Shown: piece after piece, positions 1,053 to 55,798 of the stretch
Numbering within the stretch: the first letter of the stretch is position 1
Layout of the letters: each line of letters starts with the position of its first letter
NCBI GenBank assembly: GCA_001724265.1
Contig: MEDY01000374.1
Location: forward strand, 1-58,259
Direction: 5' to 3'
DNA from: Rhizaria sp. SCN 62-66
Lineage: Eukaryota
Length of the DNA stretch: 58,259 nt
Notes under the pieces: generated by a model
What the model saw: the letters and a program-made list of their open reading frames with translations, nothing else
Databases searched by the model: none
Told to the model about the DNA's origin: nothing
Position numbers and translations under genes: made by a program

Positions 1053-3306
1053 TTAGCACGGCAAGTCCTGCCAGTTACGTGCATAGCTCTGCGTCTGCTG
1101 TCCCTGGCCCTGCTGCGTCTGCTGGTACTGCTGGCCGTAGCCCTGGCCCTGGCCCTGGAGCTGCGTGGGCTGCTCGTAGTGCTCGTCGGCCACGGGCTGC
1201 TGGACGAACTCGCTCTCGGCGTCGTCCTCGACGAAGGGCTGCACCAGCGGCATCTCCCACAGGAATACTGCGCCCTCGTCGCCGACCGTCACGATCGTCT
1301 GCTGGTCCGGGGAGATCTCGGCCTTTGTGATGGCACCGCTGTGGCCCAGACCCGCAAAGTGGCAGCAGCCTTCGTCGTAGCTCCACACGCGCACGATGCG
1401 GTCCGCGCCGCCCGACACGAAGGCGTTGCCGTCGGCGGTGATGGCGATGGTGTTGACCACGTCCGTCTGCGAGCCGTCGACAACGCGGATTGCCGTGCCG
1501 TCGACGGCGTCCCAGTAGCTCAGCTTGCGGTCAGAGCCGGTGGTGAGGAGCTGCGACTGGTCGGGGTGGTACACCACGGCCTTGAACTGCGTCGATGCGA
1601 AGAGGCAGGTGTTGCGCGAGAAACGCTCGAGCGACCAGACGATGCAGGAGCCGTCGGCCGAAGCGGACACGCACTCGGAGTCGTCTGCGTTGAGCTTGAT
1701 CGAGTGCACACACGACTTGTGCTCCTTAAGCGAGGCCGCCATGCGCGTCGCGGTGCCCTGCACGACCCACACGCGGACCTGGCCGCACTGGCCGCCGCTG
1801 ATAATGCGGCGCCCGTCGGCCGTGACGGCCAGCGCGGTGACGCCGTCGCGGTGCGCGTCGTTGATCGTGTAGAGCAGCTGCCCCGACTGCGGCTTGAAGG
1901 CGCGGATCTTGCCGTCGCTCCAGCCGCTGAGGATGCTCTTGCCGTCGCGCGCGAAGGCGATGGCCAGGCAGTCGAGGTTGGGCACGCGGATGCGGAGCAG
2001 CTCGTTGCGCGTCTTGGACGACCACACGCGGATGTCCGTCTTGGCGCAGGTGGCGAAGAGGTCCGAGAAGCCGACGGGGAAGGCGACGCCGTTGATGCCG
2101 CCCGAGTGGCAGGTACTGCGGAGCTCGTGCTGGAGCGTCTGCACGTGGCACAGGTACGTGTTGCACTGCTGCGTGCCGACGAAGAAGTGGTCCTTGGCGG
2201 CGTTCATGACCAGGGACGTGACGGCACCGCCGTCGAGCGTGGTCTTGGCCATGATCTTGAGCGACTGCTGCGAGAGTACGGCCACAGTGCCGTCGCCGGA
2301 GCCGACGACGACGTTGCCGTTCTTGGTCAGCGTCGTCGCTGTGATGCCCAGCGAGAAGGGCTTGCCCAGAGGGCCGGCCTCCTTGAAGAGCTTCGACGTA
2401 AGGGAAACCTTGAGCAGGTCGCCAGACTTGGTGCCGCAGTAGACGTACTCGTCGTTGGCGTCGATGCTCACAGTGTTAAAGCACCGCTTGAGCTGGCCCA
2501 AGCTGCAGTCGGTCGGCCGCAGCTTTCGGTTCGCCAGGTCCAGCGACCACACGCGGAGGTTGTAGTTGCCCGCCGTCACGAGCTGGTCGTCGGTGTTGTT
2601 GAAGAAGCGGACGACCGTGGCCGTCTCGTTGGCGGCGGGCGAGCCGCACACGGCCTGGCCGGACTCGACGTCCCACAGCACCAGCTTGTTGTCGTCGCGG
2701 CCGCCCAGCGTGGCGAGGAAGCGCTCGTTGTGGGAGAAGGCGAGGTCTTGGACCTTGCCCTTGTGCAGGACGAGGCGGTGCATCACCTCGTACGTCTCCA
2801 GGTTCCACAGGATCACCTGCGCGGGGAAACCCATGTGCGTGACCTAAGATGATGGATGAGAGAATCAGGAACAGAAAAGAGAGATATTTGGGGGTATACG
2901 TGAGTAATTCAATATTTTTTTTTGATTTCCAGGCCAGTTATGCAGAACAACACGTGATAATTCAATGGAAATATGTAATTCATTGATCTTTATCGCAAAT
3001 TCAAGTGTTTTGTCGTGTGGGACGTACCTGACCGGTGGCGAGGTACTTGCCGGAGCGCGAGAGGGCGAGGCACGAGATGGTGCTGTTGTGGCCGCCGCGC
3101 TGAAGGAAGGCCTGCGTGTTCTTGAGCAGGTGCTTGACAACGATGGTGGAGCCGAGGGGGTAGATGATGTGCTGGTCGCCGGGGTGCAGCAGCAGCCCGT
3201 TGGGGACGTTGCCGTTGAAGCCGATCACGCCCTTGAGCACGAGCTCAGCGGTGCCGGCCTCCACTGCACCCGCGGCGCCGTACTGCGTGCTGTCAGCGTT
3301 CTCCAT
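1053..3306 (-). CDS. CFAP52: Cilia- and flagella-associated protein 52 (WDR16/FAP52), WD40-repeat axonemal microtubule inner protein; exons 3306-3028 and 2843-1053, about 689 aa
   Basis: Splicing GTACGT(3027)...TTAG(2844) joins LATGQ|VTHMGFPAQVILWN in frame, matching the CFAP52 pattern ASGQVTxMGFxAxxIxW. Other characteristic segments are VIGFNG, YPLGSTIVV, LRIRVPNLDC, SGWSDGKIRAF and TTGSDRKLSYWD. Stop is TAA. Confidence 0.93.
2844..3027 (-). other. Spliceosomal intron in CFAP52 (184 nt, phase 0)
   Basis: GTACGT donor, AT-rich body, CTGAT plus pyrimidine tract, TTAG acceptor; removal restores a continuous conserved frame. Confidence 0.9.
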
Positions 3307-4193
3307 CTGCGATAGCCAGTGCACAGTGGCAGACGAGAGAGTAGATGCGTCGGAGAGAGAGAGCGCGCGGATGGGAAGGAGGTGAACGAAAAAGAATCGG
3401 GGTGACGAGGAAGCCAAGGAAAAGAGCAAGATGTGCGGGAGAAACAAGGGTTAGAGGAATGTAAGCGTAATTAATGGATGTAAAGAGACATGAATGCACT
3501 ATTACACATGACGAGATATCATTGAAAAGTAAAACAAGTGCATGGCAGCAAGGTTTGCAGGTGGGCGAGCACTGTGGGTTTGGGTTGTAATCGACGCAAA
3601 CTAAAGGAGCATCCGCACGGCTATTCTCCGTAGAGATGCAGCACTAAAATAAAAACCCGGTTCTTTCATTACAGCAAACATCCTGAATTTACTCCCCAAG
3701 CGATAGCACAGCATACAGCACTCACACGACACGATTCCGATTCAAGAAAGAACGGTTACTTCGACCCAGCGAAGAGAGCGACGGTTGGAGCCGTGCAGCG
3801 ACCCGCCTCGGTTCGTGAAAAAGGTCGAAGGAGTTAAGCGAGGTGGGGGCAATCGGGGAGGATGCTTGGCGTGCGCTTTCGTTCTCGACGGCCCGCAGAC
3901 TCATTCGACCATTCTTGCCTTCCGAATTTCTGTTGCAACGCAATATACGTGATCTTGTTTGTTGACCATTTTCTTTTTTTGCATAAAACGCATGTTGACC
4001 CGGTCTGGCAGAGGCAGAAAGCTGACCCACTTTGAGTGGGTGACTCGATGCTCCTCCACTTCCCTTTCGGGTTGTCTGCGGCAACTTTCCTTGCATTCTT
4101 TTGAAATGAATCCTCTGTAATCCTATTGCTAACCACATTTCATCTCCGTTCTCCTGCAATATATCCTATTCCACGCTACGGCACAGTCTCTAG

Positions 4194-4865
4194 ATGGGTC
4201 GCAAGAACTGGGGCGAGCGCATCGGGCGCAAGATGCTAATTGTGTCCGACGTCATCTTCATCCTCTGCGGCGTCGCCATCCTCATTACCGCGATCATCAG
4301 CCACGCCGAAGTGAAGGACATGCAGGATCGCACCGACCTGCTGAGCGTCATGAACATCGACACGTACCTCGTCGTCGCCATCTTCGTCGGCGCGGCGGCC
4401 ATCATCGGCGCCCTCCTCGGCCTCATTTCCGTCCTCAAGCGCTACAAGCGCCTCCTCGTCTTCTCCGTCATCGTGATGTTCATCGTCTTCGTCGTCCAGA
4501 TTGTCATGGGCTCGCTCCTGCTCTCGGCCAAGACCTCCGAGGTCTACGACGCCTTCCGCGAGGACTCTGCCGCCGGCTACGCGCGTCGTGAGGCCTTCCA
4601 GCAGGACATGCAGTGCTGCGGCTGGAACTACATCACCGAGGAGTTCTTCCCCGAGCGCGTCGCCTGCATCGCGCGCCACCCCACCTTCACCGAGACGTGC
4701 GCCTCCGCGCTCGAGACCTTCCTCGACAAGTGGGCTCAGCCCGCGGGCATCGTCCTCATCGTCTTCTCGATTCTCGCCTTCATCGCGCTCGTGGCGTCGA
4801 TGCTCGTCGTCTTCTCGTCACGCACCGTCAAGGAGGACTTCTTCGAGAACCCCTTCTCGTTCTAA
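4194..4865 (+). CDS. Tetraspanin family membrane protein, 223 aa
   Basis: Three N-terminal hydrophobic helices, a large loop with the CCG motif (MQCCGWNY) plus two further Cys, a fourth TM helix and a short tail. Strong C/G third-position bias. Stop is TAA. Confidence 0.88.
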   Translation: MGRKNWGERIGRKMLIVSDVIFILCGVAILITAIISHAEVKDMQDRTDLLSVMNIDTYLVVAIFVGAAAIIGALLGLISVLKRYKRLLVFSVIVMFIVFVVQIVMGSLLLSAKTSEVYDAFREDSAAGYARREAFQQDMQCCGWNYITEEFFPERVACIARHPTFTETCASALETFLDKWAQPAGIVLIVFSILAFIALVASMLVVFSSRTVKEDFFENPFSF

Positions 4866-6176
4866 GTGCGCGGCGTTGCAGTCGTGGACTTGCATCCACA
4901 ACATTTCTGTCAACAACGTTGCCAACACGCATGTTGTTGTTCTAAGTGCCTCACTTATCACTTTGCTCCAAGTCAGCGCCCAGCGAAGTATTTCGCATTC
5001 GTGTTACGACAACATCGTTACAGTATGGCTTCACACAGTCCTTATGATATAGCCACAGTGACAGTCACATTTGCAGTCGCAATCGCCTGCTGCCACAAGT
5101 TGGTGCAGAAACTAACCTAACTGCAACTGCTACTTGATAGTGAGCACTTTTGTGTGGCGTGAGCTACGCAGCAAACCATACTCCCATACTCTTTGTAGCT
5201 TAAAAACTCGGAGCGAACCAAGTCTGTACAGATCGTTTATATTTTCCCCTTTTTGTTTTCTATTTTCCTCAAAAACATGGTTGCATTACCGTTAACAGTT
5301 TTGGTTGCGAGTCATGTTTTTGTTTTTCTTGGTGACCCAGTTTTATGCTTCTGTTTTTATTTTCTTCTTTTCGTTTCTCTTTTCGCCGTGTGGTGGTTTC
5401 AGCGACATACTTTTGCTTTAAGTAGCGTAAATGTGTGGTGTTGATGGAACGCCGTCTCAGTCTTGCGATCGCTAAACGTTTGGTCAATCTTTTGCAATAT
5501 CACGACATTTCACACAGACACGTTGCAAAGTGTTTCTATAGAGGCAGAAATGCGGCGAGCGCGGTAACGAAGTGCACACCATCGGTGCGGGGGCTTCACC
5601 GGTCCTCCTCACAGCTTGCTCGAATTTGTCAGCAGATATACGTTCCGCCACTCGGAGATGACGTGGACCACATTGTTAACTGTAGTGTTCGTTGTAGTGT
5701 TACCAATGAAATTTTCTTCACCTACAGCCTACTCTATAGTCTTTCTTTTTGCTTCTCTCTAACTCTCCCTTTTCACACTCGCTCCCACTGCTGATGATAC
5801 TGTGTGCGCTGCTGCTGTTACTTCCTGTCGCTGTTGAGCAACAAAACAGCTGCAATGCAGCACAAACACGTGTCGTCCTTTGCGATTGATGTCTTCATCA
5901 TACTTCTCTTCGTCTACGTTTTGTTTGCTTGCTTGTTTGTTTGTGCTTTTCTAATCGTTCATTACCTTAACTGAGAGCAAAGTAACACGAAACCATAGTC
6001 ATCTGTTTTAGTCGTAAGTTAGCAGCATATGTATGTATATCCTATCAGTTTTTTTTTTCTCAATAGTTCTTTTATCATAACACAATACCCGAATCAATAA
6101 AACAAACATAACCTTTAAAACAAACCAATAACATCTGACACCGCTGACATCACAAGTCGTGCTAAGATTGACTGCC

Positions 6177-9100
6177 TTAGACTGACGAGGACAGGAATGC
6201 CTGGCAGCTACCCAGCCGGCCCGCGATGCTCCTGGTAAGCGCAGCCACCCTCGCCGCGGTGGCCGCGTCCCCGGCCTCAAGCCCGACCTCGACTCTGTGC
6301 GCCAGGGCTTGGAAGCGGGCAATGCTAGCGCTCGTCGGGCTCAGCTGACCGTGGGCAACGGCAGCAGAGTGACCGTGCGCAGCGGCAGCGGTGGAGTGGC
6401 CATGGGAGTCGGAGGGGCGGCGCGAGGGCACAGCGGACACGTCTGAGGGAAACGGCGGTGTGTCGGTGCCGCCAACTACGCTTGCGTTGACAGCGCACAT
6501 CGGGGCAGAGACGGGAGTCGCGTTTGCAGCCGCGTAAACGCTGTTGCTGACAGGGTTGCTATTGCTGTTGTTGACCGCGTGGGCGCCGTTGTTGTCGTTC
6601 TTGTAGGCGTTGGCCGCAGCAAGGGAGTAAGGGTTGGGCGATCGCATGTACGCGCCCTGAGCCTGGGTACTGAGATTGTGGGCACTTAAACGGGCCGGGG
6701 ACGCTGGGGGCGAGTCGTCTTCAACCGTGGCCGCTGGCGCATTGCTGTTGCTGTTTTGAGTTTGTTGCTGCAGCGTCTGTGATGCGTTAAGCATCGATAG
6801 CGCAGCTTGCTCGGCTAATGCAACAGCCAAATCGCCATCGTAGTCATCGTCGTTGCCTACGTTGAAGTCATACTCATCAGCAAATTTCGACGACTGTGTC
6901 TGCGACTGCGAATGCGACTGTAGCGGCGACTGCGGCTGCGTTGACGGCTGCGTCGACGACTGCGTCACAGTCACGGGCACGGAGTTGGCGGCAGCGAAGC
7001 GCACGCTGCCGGGGGACGCCACGGCGGGGCCATGCACTGCAGCAGCACCCGTGAAACTTGTGACGCCCGTGACGGCACCGGTGCCAATAGCAGAGGCGCT
7101 GGCATCGGTTGTGACGGCATCGGTCGCAGTTGCAACCGAGCGGTTGAGGCTGTTCACCAAGTGACCGTGCGCATTCAGGGAGTGACCGTGCGCAGCAACG
7201 GAGTGACTGTGGGCAGCGATGGCGCTCTCGACCTTGTCGAAGCGCGCGTCAATGCCTTCGATGCGGCTCATAAGCAGCTGCTGCGTGTTCGCCAGCACGT
7301 TGATCGCGGCGGCAACGGCGTCCAGACTCGCGTTGGTGCTGCTGCTACCAGTGTCGCTCTCAGGTGTCGCAGCAGTCGTAACAGGGGCGGCCGCAGCGTT
7401 GCTGCTGTTGCTGTTGTTGCTGTAGTTTACTGCGACTGTGGGAACAGGAGTCGGTAACAGCGAAGTGAAAGCGCTCTGGGGAGTCACAAACAGCTGAGCC
7501 TGCGCCTGAGCCTGCGCCTGCGCCTGAGCCTGTGCAAACGCGAGCTGCTGCTGCTGCTGGTAGTACAGCTGCTGATGCTGGTGCTGCTGCTGCTCAAGCG
7601 TCGCCACCCCCTGCTCCACCGTTAGTGCCCCCTCGCCGGATCTAAGTACCCCGCCGCGCCCCCAGGGCAGCCCGGTCACGGGCGTGGGTCCGAACGGCCC
7701 CCCCGCGGGCACCGCCACGGCCGCGGTCCCCAGCGCCGCAAGGAGCGGGTGAGAGACGGGCAACGGCAAAACCACCGACTGCTGCTGCTGCTGCTGCTGC
7801 TGCGGCGGGACGGGGCCGCAGTGCGAGGGACCCCTGCGCACCGCCACGCCGCTCGCAGGGTTGCCCACGGCGGCGCCGTGAGACGCAGTGACGCCGGGGG
7901 CGCCGCGGGAGCGACCATGAACAGCGCCGGCGTGAGCTTGGTTGCCACCGTGGCCGTGGTTGTTGCTGTTGAAGAGCGAGTGGGCAGTGGACCGGGCGCG
8001 CGAGCGCGCGCGCGGCCCCCCCGCGGCGGCGGAAGCGGCGGCGGCGGCGGCACGGGCCTGCTCCAGGCGCGAGACCGCGGGGTTTGCGGTGGCGGCCGCG
8101 GGCACGCCCACGCCGGGCAGGTAGGCCCCGCCGAAGCCGGCGACAGGGATGGAGCCAGGGGCCGCGAGGTACTGCTGGTACTGCTGCTGCAACATGAGCT
8201 GCTGCTGTTGCTGAAGAAGCTGCTGCTGCTGCTGCTGCTGGTACTGGAGCTGGAGCTGAGTCTGACCAGGGTAGGCGCTTGGCATGGGGACAATGCCAAA
8301 GCCGTCCGCAGTCGCACCAACATGAGCACCAGCATTGTCCATGGCGTCGCCAGGATAAGCAACGGGCGCACTTAGAAGAGGAGCAGGAACAGGTGCAACA
8401 GAGACGGCGGCAGCAGCAGCAGAGCTGGCAAGCATAGAGGCGGGCGTATGCACTGGCACGGAACCGCCAGCTAGAGGAGCCTTGGCCCACAGCTGCGCCT
8501 GCGCCTGCGCCCGCGACCGTGGCCGTGACAGTGACCGCGACTGTGCGCCACTCTTGTTGTCGGGGTTGCCGCGACTGCCCGCGGTGGCGCTGGGCGGGCG
8601 CGGCTTCGCCTTCGCGGGCGACATGGCCACGGCGGCCTTCAGGGACCGCGGCGTGTGCGCCGTGCTGAAGTCCACCACAGCGCTCGCGGCGTTGGCGGCG
8701 AAGGCCACCGACCGCGGGCTCGCCTTGGTGACGCGCACCGGCGACGCCGCCGCTGACGCCGACCCCGCCGCGCCGCCGCCGCCGCTCTCTGCGGCGCTGT
8801 GGGACCAGACGCCGGCGCTGGTGCCGACGGTCGCGGCGGCGGCGGCGGTGCGGGAGCGGGAGCGGGAGCGGTTGCCGCCGCTGGCACTGCTGCTGCCGGC
8901 CGTGTGTGCGCCGTCGAGCTGGCTGATCTTGGCAAGAGTGGCAGTAAAGATGTCACAAACAAGCTCCATCTTTGGCGCGGCGTAGCCGATCTGGAGGAAC
9001 TGGGCGACCGTGAGCCGTGGCGTGAGCTGCAGCAGTGAGCGCGCGAGGCGGAAGACTGACTCGGTGAAGCGGAGGTCGTTCTTGGAGTAGAGCTCGTAGC

Positions 9101-9419
9101 CCTCGGCAACAATGAACTTGGCAAATGAGTGGCTATAGGTCAGGAAAAGGTAGTGGAGGATCGGGAGAAGCGACTCGGGCTCGCCAGCAAGAAGTCTATA
9201 TAATGATAAAAGCAAAGGGGGAAAGTATGACAGTCAGTGTGTCAGGAGATGTCAGTTGTTACCGTTGAGTTGCAGAGCAAGGGAATAATGGGTAATTAAA
9301 GTGAGAGCTCGGGAAAAATGAGATCAGACGTACTTCTCGGTGACAACGGGGTGGCTGTACTTAATGCGTGTGAGGTGGCGGCGCAGCACCCCCAGGTTGT
9401 TGAGGAGACTGCTCGACAT
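6177..9419 (-). CDS. CEP44: Centrosomal protein CEP44 homolog with a long low-complexity middle region; exons 9419-9334 and 9195-6177, about 1034 aa
   Basis: Spliced N-terminus LRRHLTRIKYSHPVVTEK|LLAGEPESLLPILHYLFLTYS...ELYSKNDLRFTESVFRL...QFLQIGYAAPKMELVCDIF matches the CEP44 N-terminal domain (GDPxxxLPIxxY, KNDLRF, KIQIVCDI). A central coiled coil is present. Stop is TAA. Confidence 0.88.
9196..9333 (-). other. Spliceosomal intron in CEP44 (138 nt, phase 2)
   Basis: GTACGT donor, CTGAC branch-like motifs, pyrimidine tract, ATAG acceptor; AA|A gives an in-frame Lys. Confidence 0.85.
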
Positions 9420-9561
9420 GCGGACTGTCAACTGGCGCTTGTGAAGCGCTGGCTAAACGGCAGAAGAGTTGAGTGAAACCAAAATGCACAAACGTTAACA
9501 ACTAAATTACAGTATTAATAATTTCATTATACTTGTAAAACTCAATTTGACGATCATTATA

Positions 9562-10705: not shown

Positions 10706-11620
10706 TTAGGCGGCGTTGCGCGTCTTGAGCGTGTGGTTGATGACCTGAATGGCGTTAACGACGCCCTGCTCGAGCATCGCCTGCGCCTTCTCCTGCGCCT
10801 TCTCGTTGCCCTCGGCGGCCTTGGCCCAGGCGTACGAGTCCCACAGCATCTGGCACTGCGGCTGCCCGTCGACGCCCGCGGGGAGCTCCTTGAGCGAGAA
10901 GGAGATGAAGTGGCGGTGGAACAACACAGGTCCGTCCACAGTCACGTAGTCGACGGCGTGCTCGGCGTCGTTCAAGCCAAGGAGGATCTCGTGGAAAGTG
11001 CCGGAGGGAAGCGTCACGGTGCGGTTCAGCAGCGACGGGTGGTCGGGCTCGTGGCCAGTAGTGACGGAGACCTTGGAGGAGTAGGCGACGAGGTACTCGA
11101 CGTTCCAGTCCGATACGAGCGACCAAACGTCCTGTGAGCAAGAGACGTTTTGCATTTGTGGCAGATATAACAAAAGTTAAACGGAGTAAAAAAGGTTTTG
11201 GGGGTAGAAGAGAGTGAGGTACATACATGGCTAAAGAATTTGTTCGAGAGAAGTTGGGAATGCAAAGATACAGCGTCAAAAGCTAAGGTGGGTGAGATCG
11301 TTGACGTTTGCTGTACTTACCTTGAGGGGGAACGGGAGCACAAAGGTGTTCGAGTACGTGAGCTTGGCGGCCTTGTCAAGGCCCTTAATCGTCTTCTCGG
11401 TCCAGCTCGTCGCGTCCTTGCTCTTGCCGCCGGCGGCGGCAGCGCCCGAGGCGGAGGCTGAGGTGCCAGCGCTCTCGCCAGAGCCAGCCGTAACGACCTT
11501 CAACTCATGCTCGTGCTGCTGCTGTTGCTGCTTCTGCTGGTTGTTGTTGTTGCCCTTGGTCTGGGGCTGAGCAGTGTCGGAATCAACGCCGACGGTCGCC
11601 TTGGAACTATTGCAGCCCAT
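10706..11620 (-). CDS. N-terminally acylated SRPBCC/START-fold (polyketide cyclase 2 / PYL-like) protein; exons 11620-11321 and 11131-10706, about 241 aa
   Basis: MGCNSSK start fits myristoylation at Gly2 and palmitoylation at Cys3. Spliced PFPLK|DVWSLVSDW followed by RTVTLPSGTFHEILLGLNDAEHAVDYVTVDGP and a long C-terminal helix follows the helix-grip SRPBCC pattern. Stop is TAA. Confidence 0.7.
11132..11320 (-). other. Spliceosomal intron in the SRPBCC gene (189 nt, phase 0)
   Basis: AAG|GTAAGT donor, ACAG acceptor, in-frame join of two GC3-rich ORFs. Confidence 0.85.
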
Positions 11621-37522: not shown

Positions 37523-37561
<39 letters not shown>

Positions 37562-42733: not shown

Positions 42734-43429
42734 CGTCAACAAGATCTTGTAGATTTAGACTGCGAGATGAGTTTGGATCGAGTTATATATATAAGCAGGG
42801 GAATTAATTCTTTATATTGAGTATGAATGTGTTACATAGATGTCAATCAAATTCGGTTATGAGTGCGTTTGATGCGATTTAGCGGCTGCAACTGGCGTTT
42901 GTGGTTCCCAGGGACCGAAAGCTGACTGCAGTGTCAGCAGAATACAAAAAGTCGCGACTTTGAAACTATCTTTCGTCAACCTAGATCAAAGCAACGACTT
43001 TCTATAGTGATTTGAGTTTGTGATATTATCTTTTTAATTATCTTTTTCGAATGTTCCGTCTTCACCTGATTCCAGCTTGCGCGCGCGTCGGTTCTCTCTC
43101 AACGGCTTGCACCTTCACTCCCGTCACTTTTTCCCTTTGCTGCGCTCTATCAGCTCGCACTTTTACGCAGTTTAGGCGACCAGCCGATTTCAATTGCACG
43201 GGATTCTTTATTGGTTGCACACACATTTGTTGCCAGTCTCCCCCTGGCCCACAAAACTCTATCTCCGCCTCTCAGGCCTCTCGCGACTGCTGCAGAGCAA
43301 TCTCTCCCCACAGCCGCAGCAGCTCAGTCGCAACAGCAGTATTGGCAGCGGCCAGGCTAAACTCTAGCGCGCCTAATGCCTTATTTGCGCCCGGGCGCCC
43401 GCGCGCGCCTGGCCCAGACATGGCGTGCC

Positions 43430-46400
43430 ATGACAACGTATATATTCCTGCTGTTTCTGTTGCTGCCGCACACGACCTTGTCAGTCAACCCGTCGCATCA
43501 CTTGCGTTACACCGGCAACGGCAACGGCAACGGTCGCGGCAGCGGAAACAGCGATGGAAACGGTAACGGCAACAGCGGGCACCAACATGGCGCGCGCAGC
43601 GCACAGCCACATCAGCAACCGCAACGTCAACCTGGTGCAAGTTCTACAAGCTATGCGAGTTCCGCAAGTTCTCACTCAGGGCCTCGGTCGAGCGACTTCA
43701 CGTTCATCAAGCTCGCAACGGGACACATTGCTGCGTACCTTACCCCGCCCGTGGCCGCTGCCGGTGCAAGTGCCGCGCCGGCCGATCTGAGTGCCCCCGT
43801 CGGCGTCGCCCCAGCGGAGCTATTGTGGGTCCGCGATCCCAAGACTCTGATCAACCCGCGGTCTGAATGCTTCCTGCTCTCTCCGTCAACGGCGACGACG
43901 ACGCCGACAACAGCTGCATCCGGTTCTGGCTCTGACGCTGGTTTGCGCCCCAGTTCTACGTCCAGGGCCGGTGGCAATGACGATGACGCGGCGGCAGGGT
44001 CGACCATGTCACAGTCTGAGCCACACACCGCGACCGGCACTGGCCCTCGTTCTACCTCTAGCTCTAGCCATCGCTCTTCTGGGCTTGATACACGCGAGAA
44101 TGAGGCCAACGCGAACGACAACTCTAAGGCCCCGCAAGAAACACTGACCACAAGAACAGCAGCGACTCCGTCCTCTGCGACTGCGACTCCGACTGCGACC
44201 GCTGCCGTCGCCGCGTACTCCCCGCCTGCCGCCGCCGCTGCGCCCCGCGCGGCCCCGCTGGTGTTGGTGCAATGCGCGTCTGGCGTCACGCTGACGGCCG
44301 CGGCGCCGCTGCACCTGCACCGCGCCTGCGCAGTCATGCAGAGCGCCATCGCCCCCACACCTGCCTCGGACCGTAGCGCGAATGCGCAGGCAAATGCGCA
44401 GGCGGCGAGTGCTGACCGCAGTAATAACAGGGCGTTTGCCGGCGACAGCGGGCTTGAAATGGCGGCTTACGTTCGCGACAACAGCGCTCTCCGTGGCAAC
44501 GGAGTCGGGAACAGTAACAACAATAATGACAACAAGCAACAACAGCAACAGCCGAAGCAGCCGAGCTTCAAGCAGCAGCAGCAGCAGAGGCGTGGCGCTG
44601 CTTTCACTGCTGACAGCGACGACGGCGATAACGGCGCTTACATCGGCGGCGCTGGTAGCAGCACGGGCGGCTTTCTTTTCTCTCTGGACGGCTTAACTTA
44701 CTCGCGCTCGGTGGAGACGTATCCTGTCGCGATCAATGCTTTGACCGGTGACCCTCTTGATAATGACATTACTCACGGCCACTTTAGCAAGGTTAACAAC
44801 AACAGCAACAACAACAATGATCGTAACAGCAACAGTGCTTTCAGCTCGAGCTCGAATTCTGGCGCGAGCTCCAATGGCGCTCGTGACACTGCCAGTGCCA
44901 GTGCCAGCGCAAGTGCGAGCTCTCATACGGGCGATGATGCGGGCGACAACGCGGCTGTAGTGCACCGCCTGTGGCTGCGGCGCACCGCGGTGACCGTGCG
45001 CGCGCGCGACCCCGCCGGCCGCGTGCATAACGTGCTTTGCCACGACACTGTGGAGCTGGAGCTCGCGCCGCAGGCGGCGGACGCTGAGCACCTGTCTGAG
45101 TCCCAATCTGGGGCGCAGTCTGAGTCGGGTGCTCACAGTCACGGGCATTTTGGCACTCGTTCGAGTGGCGACTCTAAGAGTCAGAGCGGCGATCCCAGTG
45201 AGCGTGTTGTTCTGCCACCGCTGTGTATGTTGGTCGAGCAAACTGATTTGCTTTCTGCGCAGACTCCAGACACCAGCGCGAACAGCGACATGAAGAGCCA
45301 AAGCCGCTCTACAAACAGTCATTCTGACGCTGACACGGGCGTTAGTCACATCTCGTACCCATTCTGCCCGCACACGCGCAGAGATTCGCGGCTTAACTTC
45401 GACCAGTGTCTTGCTGAAGTGACAGCATCGTCGACAGGAGCAGCAAAGACGGCGAGTGTCGGTGCTGCGAAATCTGCAGTTGCAACTGGGGAAAGTAGAG
45501 CCGGTGTAGTGACCTTGCCTCTGCTGCCTTCTGCGACTGGTGTTGATGCTGATGCTGTCGCAGTCACCGTTGCACATATGTTGCACGCTAAGTCAGGATC
45601 TAAGAGTCCCAACACAGTCGCGAGCACGAAGGTTGCAGATCCGACTGCAGGAGTCGGAAGCAAAGATGGAGCATCAGGCGATAGCGCTGCTAAGCAACAA
45701 CAGTCAGAGTCACATTCTCAGCGGTTGCACTCAAGGTCTTCACAGCCACAACCACAGTCTGCCCGGTATGTGTTGGTGTGTTCACAGAGCATTTCACTTA
45801 CTTCTGAGGACTTTTTCGGTCCCGCAGTCACTGCCAACTCTGCTAACATAAACGCGACTGCTGCCAATGCTGCCACTAAGAGTACTTATTCTGCCGACCA
45901 CGCTGCCGCTTCTGAGTCCTCGGACTCAACGTGCGCTGTACCCACCCACTCGAGCGGCCCTGCGTGTCACGTACTAACATCGTTCATGGACTGGCACTGC
46001 CACAGCTCCTTACATTCCGGCGGCATTTTCAACAGCACGATCGGCGATGCATCAAGTCGTCCCGGCGTTAGTGCGAGCTCTAGTTCGAACGTCGCCGGTG
46101 ACTTTTCGTTGCCCCGTTCCAACACCCGCGCCTACAGGTCTCTGCTGCGGCAACTGCGCGCCCCCGGCGGCGTTACGGTGATTGCTATCTCGGATACACT
46201 TGCGACCGCAGCAAACGCGGCTGCCGTAGGCGCTGCTTCTGCGTCCAGTTCTGTTGCCGGCAACGGTGCTGCAGCGACCGATGCCGATGCCGATGCAGAC
46301 AAGAACAGTGCGAGCGTTGTTGATGGTGCGACTCCTGCTGCCGACAGTGGAATTGTGCTTGTAGTCACAGCTGACAACGGCAATAGCAACGCCAACACTC

Positions 46401-49400
46401 AGATTCCTAAGATTACTCACAAGACCAGCGACAACGCCAACACAGCGACCTCTGACTCTGGCGCAAGCGACACCGAGAGTGAGGGTGATGTTGACAACAG
46501 CGGCAGTCGAAAAGCAGCTGTGGCAGCATTCTCACCACAGTCACTTGTTTCAGTGTCTCGCGGCACGTTTGCTGGCAAAGCGATGACGTTGTCGGCAACA
46601 TCTCTGAACGCTGTCAGTACGTACCATGCTGATCAGCATGAATCACACGAGGTTCAAAAAAGCTCGACTCCTTACATTGACGATCCTTACGGATTCCCTG
46701 ACTCCGACGACGACGGTGACAACGGCACTAGCGATGACAATCACCACGATTCTAGCCATGGTAGCGACACACGCAGTAACGATGTTGTTGTGGCGATGAC
46801 TGTTGGCTCTCGTGAAATGCCGTTTGTATATGGTGTTGCTGACACGCTCACCGTCGCAAAGCCTGATGTCACTGTTACTGCCACTATGCCAACAACCTCA
46901 ACGATTGTCCCTCGATTCGGCTCTGGCTCTGACGCCGCCGAGTCCATGTCTGACTCTGAGTCCGGCTCCGCTGTTGTGTACATTGGCAGTGATTCCTACG
47001 CGTTGCTTGCGCGGCTGCTTGAGCTCTCCGCCCGCAAGCTTGCCGCTGCAGCCTCAGAAGCTGCAACAACTGGCACTCGTCCTGGAAAGGGGACTTCGAC
47101 AGCGACAACAGCGGTGCTGCCGTCCTATTTCCCGTTGCACCCGCTTTCCGCTGGCAGCTCCATGAATTCAAGCAAAACTAGCGATAACGACCACGCTACG
47201 CGCCCTGGAGTTAACTCAAATACCAACAGTGATAGCACTGACTTTGACATTCAAAACCGGTTGCCGTTGCCTCCTCCGTCGTAGTCGTATTCGCAGTTAC
47301 AGGCGCTGCTGCCGCCGCCGCCGCTGCCTGCGCGCTCCCACGCGGCCACCCTGACATCTTACTTAGCCCCTTATAGCACGTTTGCTTTTGAACCGTCGAA
47401 CAATCTGTACAAGACATTTTTCGGTCCGACCGCTCCTAGTGATGGCGATATCAACAATAATGTTAAGTCTGACGAGAGCGACATTGTGGGTAATCTGCTC
47501 TTGCGACCGCTGGCCCTCGACGCTTGCGACTGCGCGCGTGTCAAGACCGACGCTACGGCATCATCATCGACCGTACGCTCTGCCGCGGCCTCCGTCTTTG
47601 GCAAGTCAGCGACGACGATGACGAAGGCGGCAGCGACCGCCGTTGATGCGGCGTCTGCGCTGGGCACTGGGAGGATTACTTCGGCCGTTGACTTTGACTC
47701 TGAGGCTATGCTTGCAGAAGTGCAGGCTTTGACTGACTCTGCTCTCGCAGACTCCGCTTTATTCGACGATGAGACATTCAACACTGTGATGTCTCGGCTG
47801 GCTGAGCTGACTGAGCAGCTCACTGCCGTTACCGATGCCACGACGAACAGCCATAGCCGCAGCCGCAGTCGCTCAAACAGGGGCAACGATGACAGCCAGT
47901 CGCTTACTGTGGTTGCTGCTGCTGGGGAGAACCTAGTCAAGTCTACAAAGTCGACACTCACTGACGGTGCAAGTACCTTTGGTGCTGGCGCTGGTAGCTC
48001 ACGTGATACTCCAAGTAGTCTTGGTTTCGAACTCGAGCTGGTGACGCACTACTTAGACGACGAACCTTTACAACACGATCACATGCACGATGGCAACACC
48101 GGCGCCGGTACTTCTGCGGCCCACGGTCGATCTGCGAACGCTAAGCCGTCTCCAGCAGCGGGCCACATGCCCCTTGAGGTCCTAGCGGCCGCATCTGCCT
48201 CCGCCGCTGGCTCTGCTATGACCGCCTCCAGTGATCGTGACCGCAGCGGCAGCGTTGTTGACGGCAGCGCAGTTAGCTGGGATGCACTTATCGCTCGCAA
48301 GCAACAGCTGCTGCAGCTGCTGCTGTCTGCGCGCGCCGATGCGTGCGCCTGTGTCTGCGCCTGCGGTCGCCGCTGCCGCGCAACTGCGGCTGCCGCTGCG
48401 AGCTCTGAGCGGTTTGCAGTGGCTCAGCGCGCGACCAGTGCCAGTGGCGGCGTTGGTCTTAGTGTAAGTGTGAGAGTCAACGGCGACAGCGATGCTCGTC
48501 TGACAAGGCCTCCCGTTGACGGAAATGGTGACGCTGTTGAAGATATGGGTGCCGTGACGAAGTATATTGATGTTGTCAGCTATAGCGATGATGACATCAC
48601 AAGGATCAATAGCGATGGCGACGATAACATGTATTACTCTGACTATAGTGAAAATGACAGTGACGGTGATGACTATGATTACGAGTCTTTGCCATACTGC
48701 GACTCCAACGTCATCATCACGGCGACGACAAAGCCAGCTAAAACGGCTACGAGCAGTCCTCTTTCTCACACCAACAAATACTTGAATAGCCAGAACCATT
48801 TGGAGCTGGAGACGTGTGCTGCCCCTGATTTAAGTCGCAAAAATTACTTAGATTCAGACGCAACTGATAGTTGCCCTATCGTGTTCCGCACTTTGCCGCC
48901 CGAGCCGAAGACCAAGTCAAGCTATCCGTCATACTTAGATGGCATCGATGCTTACACGGATATTGACTTAGATCTGGACTTGGACGGCGCAAACGAAGAC
49001 GACACCAAGGACGACGACTCTCGGAGCGCGTCTAAGGGTGTAAGCGTCAGTGACGAGATGTGCATTGCTCCGTTGCACCCCGACGCTGAATCCGACAGTG
49101 GTGATTCTGGAGCTAATAACAATGACGATACTCAAGACTACAGCATGCCTTCTAGTTCGCGCTCGCACTCGCACTCGCGCGCGCTCTCGCACGCGCACTC
49201 GCGCTCGCAGTCGCAGGCGGAGGCGGATGCGGAGGACGACGGCGTGATCGAGCTGGGCGACGACTGGGACGACGTTCCGCTCTCCGCGCTGCCCGTGGCA
49301 GTGTCCGTGGCCGCAGACGGCCAGGTGACTGTGGGCAGCCAGCACGCCGCTGGGTCCGCTTCCAACCCGGCATCAACGTCAGCAGGAGTCACTGGGAGGA

Positions 49401-52400
49401 TCACTGACTCTAGTTCGAGCGCTAGCGGCAGCCCGGGTAAGCCACTGCGCTGCCGTCCCCGCATTCGCACTCACAGTCACGATCAGTCGCGCCACGCACG
49501 TGCTCGTTCCCGGACTAGTCGCGGCGGCGCCCAGTGCCTCCATACAGCCCACGGCCATTCGGCTCACGGTCAGTGCGCGCCCCGCATCGCGGCCTTCGCG
49601 CAGTCGGCGCTCGCGCTGTCGGTGCCCGCGGGCTGTCTGGCCGCGTGTCCCGCTCGCTGCGGCCGCGCGCGCTCGCAGGTCCTGCTGGCGCACGCGCACT
49701 TGCTCGCGCTCGCCAAGATCGAGGCGCGCTTTGCACCGAGGCAGCAGGCTGGCACCAGCTCTCGCACTGGCGCTGGCGCTGGTTCGAGGTCAAGTGATGA
49801 TGTTGCAAAGGGGTATTACTGTGCTGCGATCGACATCAGCGAAGGGAAGTCTCCACAGTCGCCCACAAGTGCCGATGACCTTCGCGGTAAGTGTCCCGCG
49901 GCGCCTCAAACGGTTGGCGAGGGCGATGGAGACATCGACACCAGCACGCTGTCCCAAGGCGGCCTGACTTCGCAGTCCTCCGCGGGTCTGATCTCGCGCC
50001 TGCTGCTGCGCTGGTCGCATCGCAGCCCGCTGGCGCGGTGGCTGCACACGCGCTCCCAGTCGACCGCGCTTGTGCTTGCCCGCACGCGCACTGCGCTCGT
50101 CACCGCGACCGCGCGCCTCGGCGCGGGTGCCGCGCGCTCGCAGTGGACGCTCGCCGCGGCGCTGCTGGCGCTGGCAGTCGTCGCGGCCGCGCTGCGCAGG
50201 GCCGCCGCGGCGCAGGCGGCCGCGGGCGCGGACTGGGGCGAGGACCCTGAGGCCGCGGCCAGGGCCGGCGTCACGGCTATGGCCCCGTTGGCGCCCGCAG
50301 CCACTGCGCTCACGGTCGTGGGCAACAGCGATAGTAGCAGGAGTAGCAACGCGACTGCGAATGAGACCGTTGTTGTTGCGTTGATTGTCGGTGACGATGA
50401 CGGCTTTGTGTATTCGTTCCCAACAGTCGACTCTGTTAACACCCCGGCTGGTGATGAACAAGCACCCGCAGACTCTCTCAACGCTGCCGGCGCTACGAGT
50501 GATGATATTCGTGCCGATCTCTCTGCTTCTGTTGCTCCCGTCGCTGTCCACAGCTCTGCCGCAGCGCCCACACCGCTGTCCTGCTACTGGCACGGCGCGC
50601 CCGCGCTGCTGCAGCGCCGCAGCAAGGCCTTTTGCCCTCCGCAGGCGCTGTGGCAGTCGCGCGCGCTTGCAGCCGCCTGCGCCGCTGAGGCTAACGATGC
50701 GCAGATGAAGGTGGAGGCTAAGGAGGCACTTACACTTCGATCCGCTAAGGCAGGCGCACCGGTCTCTAGCGTCCATCACAGTCACAATAGCTCAAGTTTG
50801 AGCGCTGCTATTGCCGGCTCTGGCGCTTATCCTCACGCCGGCGCTCGTGCCAGCGGGCGCGTTACGATGGCTCTGCTGCAGCTGCTGGCTCTGGCCCGCG
50901 TGGACAAGGAGGCTGCGCTGCTGAGGGCAGCTGCGGCCGGCGTCCCAGTTCTGTCTGCCACAGTTGCGGCCGCGATGAGTACTGCGTTGGTGACGGCATC
51001 GGCCTCAGGCTTGCCCGCAGTCGACGGAGGTAAGCAACAGCAGCGTGGCCGCAGCCGTGGTAATATTGGCGGCAGTGGCGGCGGTAGCGGCCGTGGCAGC
51101 CGGAGCAATAGTGGACACAACACCCCGTTGAGCTCCCCGGGGCGGCACTTGAATTCGCAAGTCAACGGCGCCGGCATCGGTGTCGCTTCCAACAACACCA
51201 GTGACGCACTGAGTGTGATATTGTCTGCTCGCATTTCAACGCCAGGCAACAATAACTCGAACGCTGGCACAACTCATAGTTCCGGCGCTGCTGGCGCTGT
51301 AAGCGTTGCCACCACGTCTATCAGCGGCGTGATGCCGCTGCTGGCCCTGCTGCAAGACCGCAGTAGTGCCTACTTAGTGCTGTCCGCGCACCTACCCCTG
51401 CTGCCGCATCCTTACACTTACGGTTTCAGCGCTCATCACCCCTTGAGCCGCACAACAGGTTTCGCGCCCTCGCGGCGTCCGCAGTCGATTATGCGCTACC
51501 GGCTAACTGCCAACTCGCCCTTGCTCAGCACGTACGCTGGTGCGGGCGCAATTTATACTCACGGCGCGAGGGGCGCGGCACTGGGCAGCGACAGCTGTGT
51601 CGCCGACGCGCCTGTGTCGCTGCTGGCCGCGGTGACAGCGCTGCGCTTTGTGGCCCACGTGCACTCTACTGTCTTTGCTCCTGACTCTGGTCACAGCAGC
51701 AACAACAATAACAACGGTAGCGCGAGCAGAAACAATGACATTATTTTTAACACGAATGGTGCTCTCAAGTCTGCGTGTGGAGCTTTTGGCAACGCGGACC
51801 CGGTTGACTGCTATGGCGCCGCTCACGGTCTGTATCAGTCTCTTACACCTGTAAGTAGTCGCTTTGCAGTCAGTTCGCACAGTCATCGCACGCTGCTGTT
51901 CCCTAGCCCCGCTGCATTGTCATGGGCGCGCGGCTTAACTTACGCCCCCACGGCACACCACCGCGCCGCCACTACCGCGGGGCCCTGGGCAGCGGCGCTC
52001 GCGGCTGCGCTGCCCGCCGCGGTGGCCGCCGCTGCCGCCGCTGCAGCAGCCACCGCGAGTGTGACACAGAGCGACGCCGCGCGCGCGACAGCAGCGAGCG
52101 CTAGCCTGACGACGATCCGTGCTGCTGGCGTTTCGGGCGGGCCCGCGCCGCCGCGGCCGAACTTCGACTGGGTCCCCACGCTGCTGAGCGTGTGCCGCGG
52201 CGCTCTCACGGCGGCGGCGCGGCTGCACGTGACCGTGGGCGCCGCTCACGGTCATATCTGTCCCAGGACGCTGCTGCTCACGCCGACTACCGCGGCGGCC
52301 GCGAGCGCCGGCTCCGTGGCCAGCGCTGCGGCGGCCACGGCGGCCGCCGCGGCGGCGACTGCTGCGGTTGCTGGCAACAACTCTGGTTCTAGTTTTAGCT

Positions 52401-55400
52401 CTAGCTCGAGTTTTAAGTCGAATGCCAGTTCAAGCTCTAGTTCTAGCTCGAGCGCTGGCTCGAGCCCTTTGGCTGGCGTGACTGCGGGCAGCGCCGCAGC
52501 AGCGACTGTTAGCAGCGTGTGCGCCGCTTGGGTGGGCACGTCGCCCGCTGACGTCAGCGAGTGGACGCTTACACTCACGGGGCTTGAGGACGCGGCTTAC
52601 CTGATCGATGACGAGGCGGCTTTTTTCAAGAGCATCCGCCGCAGCACCACCTCGAAGAAGAAGTCGGTCTGTGTCAATAAGGACAAGAGAGGGAGTAGCT
52701 CTAGTAGCAGCGCTGAGCATGATGAAGAGGCCGCTTTACTGCAAGACTTTTCTTTTTCTACCAGCACGACCACTGGTGTTAATGCGACTGTTACGAGTTC
52801 TGAACTTACGGTTGGTTTCTTAGCAGATTATGCGTCTGACGATTTTTTCGGTCCCGCACTGGCCCTGCTCGCTTTGCCCGAGTCAGAACCGCGCTCGCCG
52901 TTTTACTCGCTGTCACAGTCGCAGCCACGGTCGCCGCTCGAGCTTCAGCCGCTGCAGTCCTCGTCGTCTCTGTCGCAGTCCGAGTCGGAGTCGCAGTCGC
53001 AGTCGCCTGTGACAGATTCCGAGTCGGACCCTGCCTCTTCTTCTGCTGCAGCGACTGCGGCCGTGCAGCTCCCGCCGTCAGTGCCGCTGCCGTCGCGCCG
53101 AGTGCTCGCCGTTGCGAACGCTCTCCTGGCATCACTTTTACCGCCGCCGACGCACAACGCCAACGGCAGCGCTAGTTCTTATAGGAGCACTGAGCAGAGC
53201 TCTATTGATGCTGCTGCTTCGATCAATGGCGATGCTGGTAGCACTGCCAGCGTGCCTGTGTCTCGCGCTGTTGCCGCCGCTACCGCTGCTTTGGCGTTCA
53301 CTGCGCCCGAAGTCGCCCTCGCACGGCTTAACTTCCTGTCGGGCGTGTGTCTGTGGGTGCAACGGGCCTTATTGGCCGCTGCAGCGCGATATCGGGCCTG
53401 TGACGGCAAGTTGCAGCCGCAACAGGGGACACAGCAGGGGCAGTACTTAGACAAGAATGGAGGCATTATGTCTCGGAACAACACGTCAAAGTACACCTTA
53501 TGCAACTATTGTAGCAAAAAATCCTCATCGAAGCCGCACTTGCTGTCTCCCACCACCTCAACCGACTCGCACTACACTGTGCCGTCTCTGCCCTTGCTCC
53601 CGGCGCCCACGGTTGCCGCTGACTCCTACTCTCTGGGCTGCTGCATGCACTTCATCTTCACGCGAGGCGCGCTTCCGTACACTTACAGCGATGGTACTTA
53701 CACTGGCACAGAGAACGGCGAGTCATCAGCGAACTGCTCACACACAGACAGCAGCAGCAGCAGCAGCAGTACTTCCATCACTGTGAAGCACTCGGCGTCG
53801 TGTCTGTCTTGCCGCCTCCGCTGCAGTGCTGCTGCGGTGCTGCGCCTGCGCACTCGGTTCCTCGCCCCGGTCACCGCGCGCGTCGCCAGTCGCCGTCCGC
53901 TGCTGCCCCCGCTGGCGACGCTCGGTGCGAGCTTCTCCGCTGCCACTGCCGCTACGGCGGGGACCGTACACGGCCAGTCTGCGGCTTGCATGGCGGCGCC
54001 TCTATCAGTGGTCACGGCGATCTCGCCCACCGCTGTGCTGCTGCAGGGGGCATACACAGCGAAAACTGCACATGCGCTGCCTCACAAAAACACCAATGCG
54101 GAGAGCACCCATCGCTCAGGCATCAGCTCCAGCCTTAGTTCGAACGGCATTGTGGCTGCGGCTGCAGGGGCCGTCACCTTCCCCGACGGCCACATTTCTG
54201 CCAGCGGCATCACCCACTCCAGCACTGGCGCTGCTTCTGCCTTGATATCCCCCACTGCGGCGCTGTCACACCTCCCGCCCACGGTCGCCGCCGCGGCCGC
54301 GCTCTCGACCGCCACCGCCGCCGCCTCGGCCGACAGCGCGGACCCGTTCTCGGCGCTGCCCGCGGCCTGGCAGGGCCTCCCGGCCTCGGTGGCGGCCCCG
54401 CTGGTGCATCTCGTTGGCCTGCTTACTGCGCGCGCGCCGCGGCGCCGGCCCGCCCCGCTGGCCGCGCTGCAGCACCCGCTCTTCTGGCCCGCAGAGCGCA
54501 AGGCCGCGTTTCTCGTGCACGTGTCCAACCTGGCCGCCGCGAGGCCCAGCGGCGGCGCCAACAGCGGCAACAGCAACAGCAACAGCAGCTGCAATACCAG
54601 CGCCGGCGGTGCTGGAGGCCAGGTGGGGCTGTGTGCGCCGCTGACGGCGGGGTACCTTGACAAGACCAGCTCAAACACGACCTCCGAGACTGCTGCTGTT
54701 GCTGCTGCTGCTGCTGCGGCTGCTTCTGCCTCTGCGGCGGCGCTGTCACTGCCACTGCCCTGCGCTGCCGTGCTCACCGGCGCTCTGGAGCGGGGCGCCG
54801 GCTTGCCCCTCACCGCTCTCGCGCACTTATCCGTGCCCCCAGTTCATTCCTCGACTTCAGCCCATGTTGCGAGTGCGATTAGCGCGGTCAATGCTGTGGC
54901 ACCCGTGGGCTGGCTGCAGGCCACCACCCCGCCGTCCGTGCTGCGCTTGCTGCTGTCCTCGCGCCCCTTCACCGAAAACAGCATAATCGAGACGCTGCGC
55001 TTTGTGAGGAACCGCGAGGCGCACTCCAAGGACGCCCCTTCCGAGAACCTGAGCAACAGCAGCGGCGGCGGCAGCAGTAGTAGCAGCAGCAGCAGCAGCG
55101 TGGGCGCGACTGACGCGGACTCAGGAGCCCTTAATAAGACCCCGGGCGCCACTGCCGGCGCCCACGGTCTCTCTGCGGTCTCCACAGCTGTGCCGAGCTC
55201 CGCGGCGGCCTCCCCGAGCGCGCAGGCGAGGCCGCCCCCCGGCCAGAGCTCGTTCCGCGAGCTGGTGGGCAGCGGCAGCGCGACGGCGGGCCGCATGCGC
55301 TTTGTTGAGGCGCGTCTGCCGCTGCTGCTGCTCTCAGTCTACACGGCCGCCGCCGCGACTCTGCTCAGCGCTCGCGGTCACGGCGGTCGCGGTGCCGCGG

Positions 55401-55798
55401 GAGGCGGCGGCGCCGTGCGTGACAGGGCGTGGGTTGCTGCCGCGGTCGCCAGGTTTGCTGAGAGGGCACTTAAGACGGGTGATTCAGGAAATCTCAGTGC
55501 GGGAGGCGGTGATGTCAGTCGTCGGAACTCTAGTGCTACTGCGTTTGCTGAACGCGAGCTCGATATCAGTGACGGCTATTGTGAAGACGAAAGTAACGTC
55601 GGGAGCAACGACACTGACAACGACGATGATTCGACTGCTGAGGCGGACGATGACGAGGATGAGGACGAGGACGAGAGCGAGAGCGAGCCAGTGACCGTGA
55701 GCGCGTTGACTGTGTCCGAGGCGGGCCGAGAGGTGGCCGCGTTTTTCGATTTTGTTGATCCTGCGATGCTCAATGCACTGCAGCAGCAACACTGGTAA
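43430..55798 (+). CDS. IRE1: IRE1-like transmembrane (pseudo)kinase / KEN endoribonuclease, about 4120 codons with one in-frame TAG at 47282-47284
   Basis: Signal-peptide-like MTTYIFLLFLLLPHTTLS. Luminal-domain-like fragments SLDGLTY...AINALTG and LWLRRTAVTVRARD. TM-like segment near 50144-50200. Kinase C-lobe APE, ADSYSLGCCMHFIFTRGALPY and RRRPxxxxALQHPLFWPAERKAAFLVHVS. KEN segments SIIETLRFVRNREAH and ARLPLLLLSVY. ORFs 43376-47284 and 47486-55798 share one frame with only a TAG between them. Stop is TAA. Confidence 0.8.

Follow-up and report, generated by a model that had tools for sequence, protein, structure and literature searches.

In-frame TAG codons in two genes of the window

The 58,259-base contig MEDY01000374.1, analysed here at its full length (the window), has a guanine plus cytosine (GC) content of 52-77% and long open frames on both strands. 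It carries eleven complete genes, and in two of these, a gene for a UBE2J/Ubc6-type ubiquitin-conjugating enzyme (E2) and an IRE1-like gene, the reading frame is interrupted by a single TAG. The meaning of UAG in the organism is the subject of this work. The window DNA is present, whole or in part, in 17 of the 18 public runs listed (12 studies; bioreactor, wastewater, activated-sludge and fuel-cell metagenomes), and at least half of the sampled words from the window are present in four runs. Since the DNA is spread over such runs, the window is a contig of an uncultured eukaryote.

Gene models were rebuilt independently of an earlier sequence-only reading of this DNA, which had counted seven TAA, four TGA and no TAG terminators in eleven genes, and TAG as an internal codon twice in roughly 15,700 codons. 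The rebuilt set comprises eleven complete genes with 15,850 in-frame codons; a twelfth gene (56504 onward, plus strand) is incomplete, extends past the window end and was left out of the census. The terminators are again TAA in seven genes, TGA in four and TAG in none. The gene count is the same as well: TGA 22294-22296, the seeming end of a 1,429-codon open reading frame (ORF), is intronic, and this ORF is joined to the ORF at 20457-22217. Internal in-frame stops number two in the modelled codons, both of them TAG (UBE2J codon 42 and IRE1-like codon 1303), with no internal TAA or TGA, which gives an in-frame UAG frequency of about 0.13 per 1000 codons. Counted over all frames, TAG is common in the DNA, with 341 occurrences vs 351 of TAA on the plus strand and 395 vs 417 on the minus strand. 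ORFs with TAG ends and a high GC content at third codon positions (GC3), such as 4190-4441 and 57919-58257 (both minus strand), were considered and rejected, since they shadow genes with better support that lie on the opposite strand or in a different frame.

The UBE2J/Ubc6-type E2 gene is located at 16611-18002 on the minus strand and has 463 codons (ATG 18002-18000, TGA 16611-16613). Its coding sequence, read from 18002 to 16611, is MADKK...TAYPLE-TAG-SLFEWHFTIRGP..., and the in-frame TAG (17877-17879, minus strand) stands in the context PLE-TAG-SLFEWHF, within the UBC fold. The part after the TAG matches Pfam UQ_con (E = 4.8e-15), and the top protein matches are named UBE2J1 (E to 1.8e-60); the best of them, at no more than 62% identity, come from diatoms and chytrids. 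In the alignment with the 120 best homologues the sequences are collinear and the TAG corresponds to exactly one gap-free column, which excludes an intron at this position. The column holds D in 34 homologues, N in 27, S in 17, H in 17, T in 15, E in 8 and G in 2, with no Q, K, L, Y or W. The frame remains open for 421 codons past the TAG. This part includes a Cys-containing block, VCLSIS...HPEEWQPSW, which we take to be the putative catalytic-Cys block of the E2, the rest of the UBC fold and a hydrophobic C-terminal tail, presumably a tail anchor. As both the block and the tail lie downstream of the TAG, and the first Met after the TAG is found beyond the Cys block, a working UBE2J enzyme would require the TAG to be decoded.

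P0171, the 41-residue UBE2J fragment that stops at the TAG, is present on six contigs, as is the product of the neighbouring CFAP52-like gene (P0176). A contig of run X5, which belongs to another study, has no differences from the window over 17783-18049 and keeps the TAG. In a search of 5.8 billion proteins no intact UBE2J allele was found: the best of 271 matches is 62% identical, and an intact allele would rank top. A search for short UBE2J fragments (53 matches) returned no close relative, only the 41-residue piece of the window itself, and a scan of metagenome contigs found no orthologous UBE2J locus, its 12 loci being all distant (38-59% identity).

The IRE1-like gene (43376-55798, plus strand, TAA 55796-55798) was modelled as one frame of 4,140 codons. 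The frames 43361-47284 and 47285-55798 are identical in phase and are split by TAG 47282-47284 (plus strand, codon 1303) alone, which is preceded by 1,302 codons and followed by 2,837. The TAG is flanked by TCG codons on both sides (TCG TAG TCG) and lies in a Ser-rich, low-complexity stretch. A tiny intron removing it was considered and rejected, as the GT..AG choices of 16 or 22 nucleotides (nt) are out of frame. The 333 nt (111 codons) that follow the TAG contain neither a stop codon nor an ATG, and their GC content is 0.58, compared with 0.566 and 0.571 for the flanking coding sequence and 0.37-0.48 for the intergenic spacers. By our own arithmetic, 111 stop-free in-frame codons would occur by chance at spacer stop densities with a probability of roughly 0.4-2%. 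Throughout the 12.4-kb frame, from 43376 to about 55700, no GC measurement falls below 0.41. The 1,302-residue upstream product (P0299), which ends at the TAG, is present on three contigs, the same number as for the DHHC gene of the window.

The IRE1 label that the sequence-only reading had given to this gene finds weak sequence support. A PDB search with the C-terminal part gave 16 matches, all of them to IRE1 kinase/endoribonuclease, the best having E = 7e-5 over 47 residues at the junction of the kinase C-lobe and the KEN domain. The Pfam Ribonuc_2-5A (KEN) match is sub-threshold (E = 9.7e-4, 19.7 bits vs a cut-off of 23.3). A KEN motif is located near the C-terminus, while the kinase C-lobe is degenerate and Pfam Pkinase is not matched. 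The N-terminus resembles a signal peptide and is found on the part upstream of the TAG only; hydrophobic segments are located at residues 2259 and 2874. The first of them (50150-50210, plus strand) is followed some 60 residues on by a strand-plus-DG motif (about 50380-50440; the two together span residues ~2259-2345) that looks like the beginning of a canonical IRE1 luminal domain. The topology of the product may depart from the simple layout of signal peptide, luminal domain and transmembrane segment.

Other genes, introns and spacers

Nine further complete genes surround the two TAG-bearing ones. The CFAP52-like WD40 gene (1053-3306, minus strand, TAA 1053-1055) consists of two exons separated by the intron 3027-2844 and was identified by Pfam and by homologues, some of which are named CFAP52. 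It is followed by a tetraspanin gene (4194-4865, plus strand, TAA 4863-4865; Pfam Tetraspanin, E = 4.1e-21) and by CEP44 (6177-9419, minus strand, TAA 6177-6179; Pfam CEP44, E = 2e-29), in which exon 1 occupies 9419-9334 and the intron 9333-9196. The two-exon SRPBCC-like gene (10706-11620, minus strand, TAA 10706-10708) was modelled from ORFs and GC3. The name, taken from the earlier reading, is backed by a sub-threshold match to Pfam Polyketide_cyc2 (E = 6.2e-4, 20.5 bits vs a cut-off of 27.4). Its product (start 11618-11620, minus strand) begins with MGCNSSK, which resembles an N-myristoylation/palmitoylation signal.

The delta-tubulin-like gene (12716-16177, plus strand, TGA 16175-16177; Pfam Tubulin, E = 1.7e-40) contains large low-complexity inserts. 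Within it, the AT-rich (GC 0.25), intron-like segment 15008-15149 holds an in-frame TAA (15083-15085) and has a CAG acceptor, a pyrimidine tract and a branch-like TACTCAC motif. Position 15008 offers a consensus-like donor, GTACTAA, whose phase does not match that of exon 2; GT..AG choices that stay in frame start only at 15021, 14976 or 14970. The segment is retained in a contig (14447-15217) of run X8 (polyA RNA).

The remaining genes are an Aurora-like kinase (18579-19917, plus strand, TGA 19915-19917; intron 19478-19704; Pfam Pkinase, E = 2.5e-65), a large low-complexity gene (20457-26583, minus strand, TAA 20457-20459) whose two exons are separated by the intron at about 22336-22124 that holds TGA 22294-22296, a giant gene of 3,906 codons containing leucine-rich repeats (LRR; 26964-38684, plus strand, TGA 38682-38684; Pfam LRR_6, E = 1.3e-7) and a DHHC palmitoyltransferase gene (39296-42733, plus strand, TAA 42731-42733; Pfam DHHC, E = 5.2e-26). 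The large low-complexity gene has no Pfam match: no family was found for three segments, and the label "AT-hook protein" proposed earlier was not borne out by them.

The genes are intron-poor, the introns being 138-227 nt long with a GC content of 0.35-0.41, while GC3 of the coding sequence is about 0.6-0.94. Four introns (those starting at 9333, 22336 and 3027 on the minus strand and at 19478 on the plus strand, in CEP44, the large low-complexity gene, CFAP52 and Aurora, respectively) have the extended donor GTACGTC, whereas the donor in the SRPBCC-like gene is GTAAGC. The GTACGTC introns also carry branch motifs of the CTGAC/CTCAC type, and this signature of donor and branch point is potentially useful for binning contigs of the organism. 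All eleven intergenic spacers have a GC content of 0.37-0.48 and contain 3.6-7.9 stops per 100 codons; the shortest is 380 nt long. Conserved proteins are greatly enlarged by low-complexity inserts rich in Ala, Ser, Asn and Gln: delta-tubulin reaches about 1,100 codons, in addition to the 4,140 codons of the IRE1-like gene and the 3,906 of the LRR gene.

Joints in run X2 were considered as introns and rejected, as one of them is an intergenic indel and the other an unaligned repeat. In a run X2 contig the 198 bases at 5535-5732 are missing; the direct repeat TCTATAG is found on both sides, and we consider this to be a strain-level intergenic indel. A run X8 contig overlapping CFAP52 at 1767-2017 differs from the window at 28 of 251 bases, which means that samples of this kind also contain a related strain or species with about 89% identity.

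Probable decoding of UAG and its alternatives

We consider it probable that UAG is decoded as an amino acid in this GC-rich, intron-poor protist of wastewater and bioreactors, and that UAA and UGA terminate translation. This is supported by two reproducible in-frame TAGs in otherwise intact genes together with the lack of TAG among eleven terminators. A tRNA with the anticodon CUA would outcompete the release factor eRF1 at UAG. The extreme rarity of UAG, so far at tolerant positions only (a variable polar column in UBE2J and a low-complexity stretch in the IRE1-like gene), would correspond to an early stage of codon capture. The decoding, the tRNA and the amino acid are all things that we infer. 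As to the UAG-only reassignment put forward in the sequence-only reading, both in-frame TAGs turn out to be real and reproducible, in genes that need read-through, and no gene ends in TAG; what weakens the proposal is that two TAGs discriminate little and that decay of endoplasmic reticulum (ER) genes also fits. The very low UAG usage is in line with the early or transitional stage suggested there.

The UBE2J column bears on the identity of the amino acid. Among the residues one step away from TAG, Ser is present in 17 of 120 homologues and Glu in 8 of 120, while Gln, Lys, Leu, Tyr and Trp are absent. The mean BLOSUM62 fit to the column is 0.78 for Ser, 0.74 for Glu, -0.03 for Gln, -0.52 for Lys, -1.7 for Tyr, -2.9 for Leu and -3.2 for Trp. 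Judging by this one alignable site, Ser or Glu would fit best as the meaning of UAG and Leu would fit poorly. The TAG of the IRE1-like gene, surrounded by TCG codons, looks like a former TCG, which suggests that the site was originally (TCG)3. Seryl-tRNA synthetase does not read the anticodon, so Ser is a mechanistically easy choice: tRNA-Ser(CGA) is one anticodon change from reading UAG and would still be charged. The heptamer GTAGTCG is common to both in-frame TAGs (17874-17880, minus strand; 47281-47287, plus strand). It occurs 12 times in the window vs 5.4 expected from shuffles; the two strands together have 736 TAG trinucleotides, of which 12 are in this context. The shared G-TAG-TCG may go back to a TCG-to-TAG change at both sites or may be a context for decoding, and we treat it as a lead only.

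A number of observations weigh against UAG decoding. There are only two TAG sites, one of them alignable, and no tRNA or tmRNA gene, no match to an Rfam family and no eRF1 gene was found in the 58-kb window. The terminator census is by itself only suggestive: the probability of finding no TAG among eleven terminators is 0.086, 0.042 or 0.020 if the normal share of TAG is 20, 25 or 30%, respectively, which agrees with the caution of the earlier reading that eleven genes are a small sample. That both internal stops are TAG discriminates little as well, because in this GC3-rich coding sequence 2,135 of the 3329 one-step stop precursors lead to TAG (64%), compared with 650 to TAA and 544 to TGA; in about 41% of cases, therefore, a pair of random nonsense mutations would yield TAG twice. 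Both TAG-bearing genes (16611-18002 and 43376-55798) belong to ER quality control, coding for an E2 of the ER-associated degradation (ERAD) type and a sensor of the unfolded-protein response. By our own arithmetic, picking two such genes out of eleven at random has a chance of 1 in 55, and their shared membership also fits correlated gene loss or decay. The identity of the IRE1-like gene is based on weak matches. A PDB search for an IRE1 luminal domain with residues 1-2375 gave two matches, both of them low-complexity noise, and a phmmer search with 1,200 residues centred on the TAG against 1.84 billion representatives found no homologue spanning it, the two matches being the window's own fragments. 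The one-gene model is thus founded on composition and frame and not on homology across the TAG. Finally, the run X5 library is flagged as "probably DNA", so its contig gives no clear RNA support, and the listed pieces of the polyA run X8 cover neither TAG site. Stretches lacking listed cover in X4 and X8, like the runs that share little with the window, were given no evidential weight.

Under the standard code, the UBE2J and IRE1-like genes would be recent pseudogenes or null alleles with fixed nonsense mutations, perhaps through decay of the ER stress response and ERAD, and the lack of TAG terminators would be due to chance. This is unlikely in our view. The 64% share of TAG among one-step nonsense mutations, the 1 in 55 coincidence of two ER quality-control genes, the census (probability 0.02-0.09) and the degenerate kinase region of the IRE1-like product, in which Pfam Pkinase is not matched, all speak for it. 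However, two broken genes out of eleven would be a high rate for such a compact, gene-dense locus, the frames stay open for 421 and 2,837 codons past the TAGs, and the UBC domain after the TAG is conserved like that of any orthologue (at most 62% identity, E = 1e-60). Moreover, no intact UBE2J allele is present in the protein collection, and the same alleles are found in assemblies from runs dated 2015-2025. It is distinctly unlikely that UAG is still a general stop which is read through at certain sites, by programmed or context-dependent suppression or with a dual meaning, so that the full-length proteins are made in lowered or regulated amounts. Such an arrangement would agree with the presence of both TAGs in the heptamer G-TAG-TCG (12 of 736 TAG trinucleotides), with the extreme rarity of in-frame UAG and with the nature of both products, since dosage control is plausible for stress proteins of the ER membrane. 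On the other hand, the heptamer is over-represented in the window anyway, a TCG-to-TAG change in TCG-rich sequence explains it equally well, and some TAG terminators would be expected but none is present. To our knowledge, G-TAG-TCG is not a recognised read-through context.

The split of the IRE1-like frame into two genes concerns one of the sites only. In that case the TAG would be a true terminator, a secreted low-complexity protein of 1,302 residues would end at 47284, and a separate IRE1-like gene would start from a downstream ATG that is in the same frame by chance, leaving the UBE2J TAG as the sole anomaly. Public gene calls split the region likewise (P0299, and P0324 starting 312 codons past the TAG), no homologue bridges the TAG, and a strand motif with DG, found beyond the hydrophobic segment at residue 2259, looks like the canonical start of an IRE1 luminal domain. 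Nevertheless, we regard the split as very improbable, since an AT-rich spacer is missing (GC 0.58, compared with 0.37-0.48 in all eleven spacers, the shortest of which is 380 nt), 111 in-frame codons past the TAG are free of stops, and the GC content does not drop below 0.41 anywhere from 43376 to about 55700. It is hardly credible that errors of sequencing or assembly in a single metagenome assembly gave rise to the TAGs. The window does come from a metagenome assembly, but the TAG-terminated fragments are found on six and three contigs of several sources, and over 17783-18049 the run X5 contig, from a different study, shows no difference. The TAGs are neither an assembly error nor a minor allele.

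Decoding of UAG is thus the best single reading of the window and a plausible one, for which 58 kb is not enough to be conclusive. We also considered a more specific scenario, which we find quite unlikely: an unsampled protist lineage at the very start of UAG capture, in which a mutated tRNA-Ser or tRNA-Glu (CUA) would already read UAG, UAG would have been purged from all gene ends, and a few new UAGs would have arisen, each from TCG and in G-TAG-TCG, at tolerant sites in genes with weak expression. Decoding would then perhaps be partial, making UAG a dosage valve for genes of ER quality control.

Position of the organism and comparison with known codes

The closest relatives of the window's CFAP52 are environmental sequences with 72, 70 and 67% identity. 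The best taxon-labelled matches (54-57% identity) belong to Colponema, Ancoracysta, Gefionella, Guillardia, Cymbomonas, Palpitomonas, Chlamydomonas, dinoflagellates, Protocruzia, Mantamonas and Cyanophora. A maximum-likelihood tree of this single gene was constructed from 76 of about 125 available proteins, namely all 17 taxon-labelled sequences and the matches P0177-P0235. The nearest relatives of the window in it are P0177 and P0178, from contigs of 46.5 kb and 111 kb, respectively (support 100 for the group); they lie within a clade of 58 environmental rows, which is set apart from every taxon-labelled sequence sampled (support 99); being based on one gene, the tree gives no finer placement. 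A scan of genome contigs with the CFAP52 alignment yielded 69 pattern stretches, none of which encodes a relative.

The UAG-uncoupled cases named in the sequence-only reading (Iotanema with Gln, a rhizarian with Leu, and ciliates) are also described in PMC5304391 and PMC11687900. In Rhizaria sp. exLh (Sainouroidea), according to PMC5304391, UAG codes for Leu while UAA and UGA are stops: 384 in-frame UAGs were found in 71 genes, the terminators are UAA (56) and UGA (15) only, and UAG is under-used in some gene classes. The window resembles this nuclear code in having in-frame UAG only and UAA and UGA as terminators. Its two UAGs in eleven genes (15,850 codons), however, represent a use lower by about two orders of magnitude, and Leu would be a poor choice at the alignable site, where none of the 120 homologues has a hydrophobic residue (BLOSUM mean -2.9). 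The habitats differ as well (an insect for exLh, wastewater for the window), and the lineage is apparently different.

In the fornicate Iotanema spirale, UAG is reported to code for Gln with UAA as the main stop (PMC5304391). Uncoupling of UAG from UAA and the prevalence of UAA as terminator (seven of eleven genes in the window) are shared. Unlike the situation there, Gln is absent from the 120 homologues in the UBE2J column, although on chemical grounds it would be tolerated (mean BLOSUM score -0.03). Nothing in the window points to a metamonad affinity, and its GC-rich genome, CEP44 and delta-tubulin say little either way. The green alga Scotinosphaera, as cited in PMC11687900, uses UAG for Ser and keeps UAA as a stop. 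In the window, too, Ser would be among the two one-step meanings that fit best (17 of 120 homologues; TCG TAG TCG), but the CFAP52 tree separates the window from the sampled green algae (Chlamydomonas, Pterosperma and Cymbomonas) with 99% support.

Independent reassignment of UAG and UAA is also known in ciliates. Phyllopharyngeans, Protocruzia tuzeti and the ciliate PL0344 have UAG-only or split UAA/UAG reassignments (PMC11687900, PMC10553269); the likeness to the window is an independent reassignment of UAG, with another meaning for UAA. Unlike these cases, the window falls outside the alveolate clade, including Protocruzia, in the CFAP52 tree. A long multi-gene contig of 62% GC is also unlike the AT-rich macronuclear DNA of ciliates. 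In the ambiguous stop/sense codes of Condylostoma, Blastocrithidia and Amoebophrya, two or three of the stop codons are affected and in-frame stops are numerous, their meaning being set by context or position. In-frame stops within intact genes are a common trait, but in the window TAG alone is affected, and twice only, the in-frame TAA at 15083 being located in the intron-like segment. No description of such a code in a wastewater protist was found in the open-access literature searched.

UAG-only reassignments are therefore already known, and the window, if our interpretation is right, would add a case notable for its early stage. UAA and UAG nearly always change meaning together, and each independent uncoupled case is a test of why they do so; the known ones comprise one rhizarian, one fornicate, one green alga and several ciliates, according to PMC5304391 and PMC11687900. 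Public gene calls split both genes at the TAG (P0171, P0299, P0324), so that proteomes of this organism predicted with the standard code would be fragmented wherever TAG occurs. If UAG is indeed decoded, its use at about 0.13 per 1000 codons would place the organism near the moment of capture, a rarely observed stage and the very point of dispute between the codon disappearance and ambiguous intermediate models.

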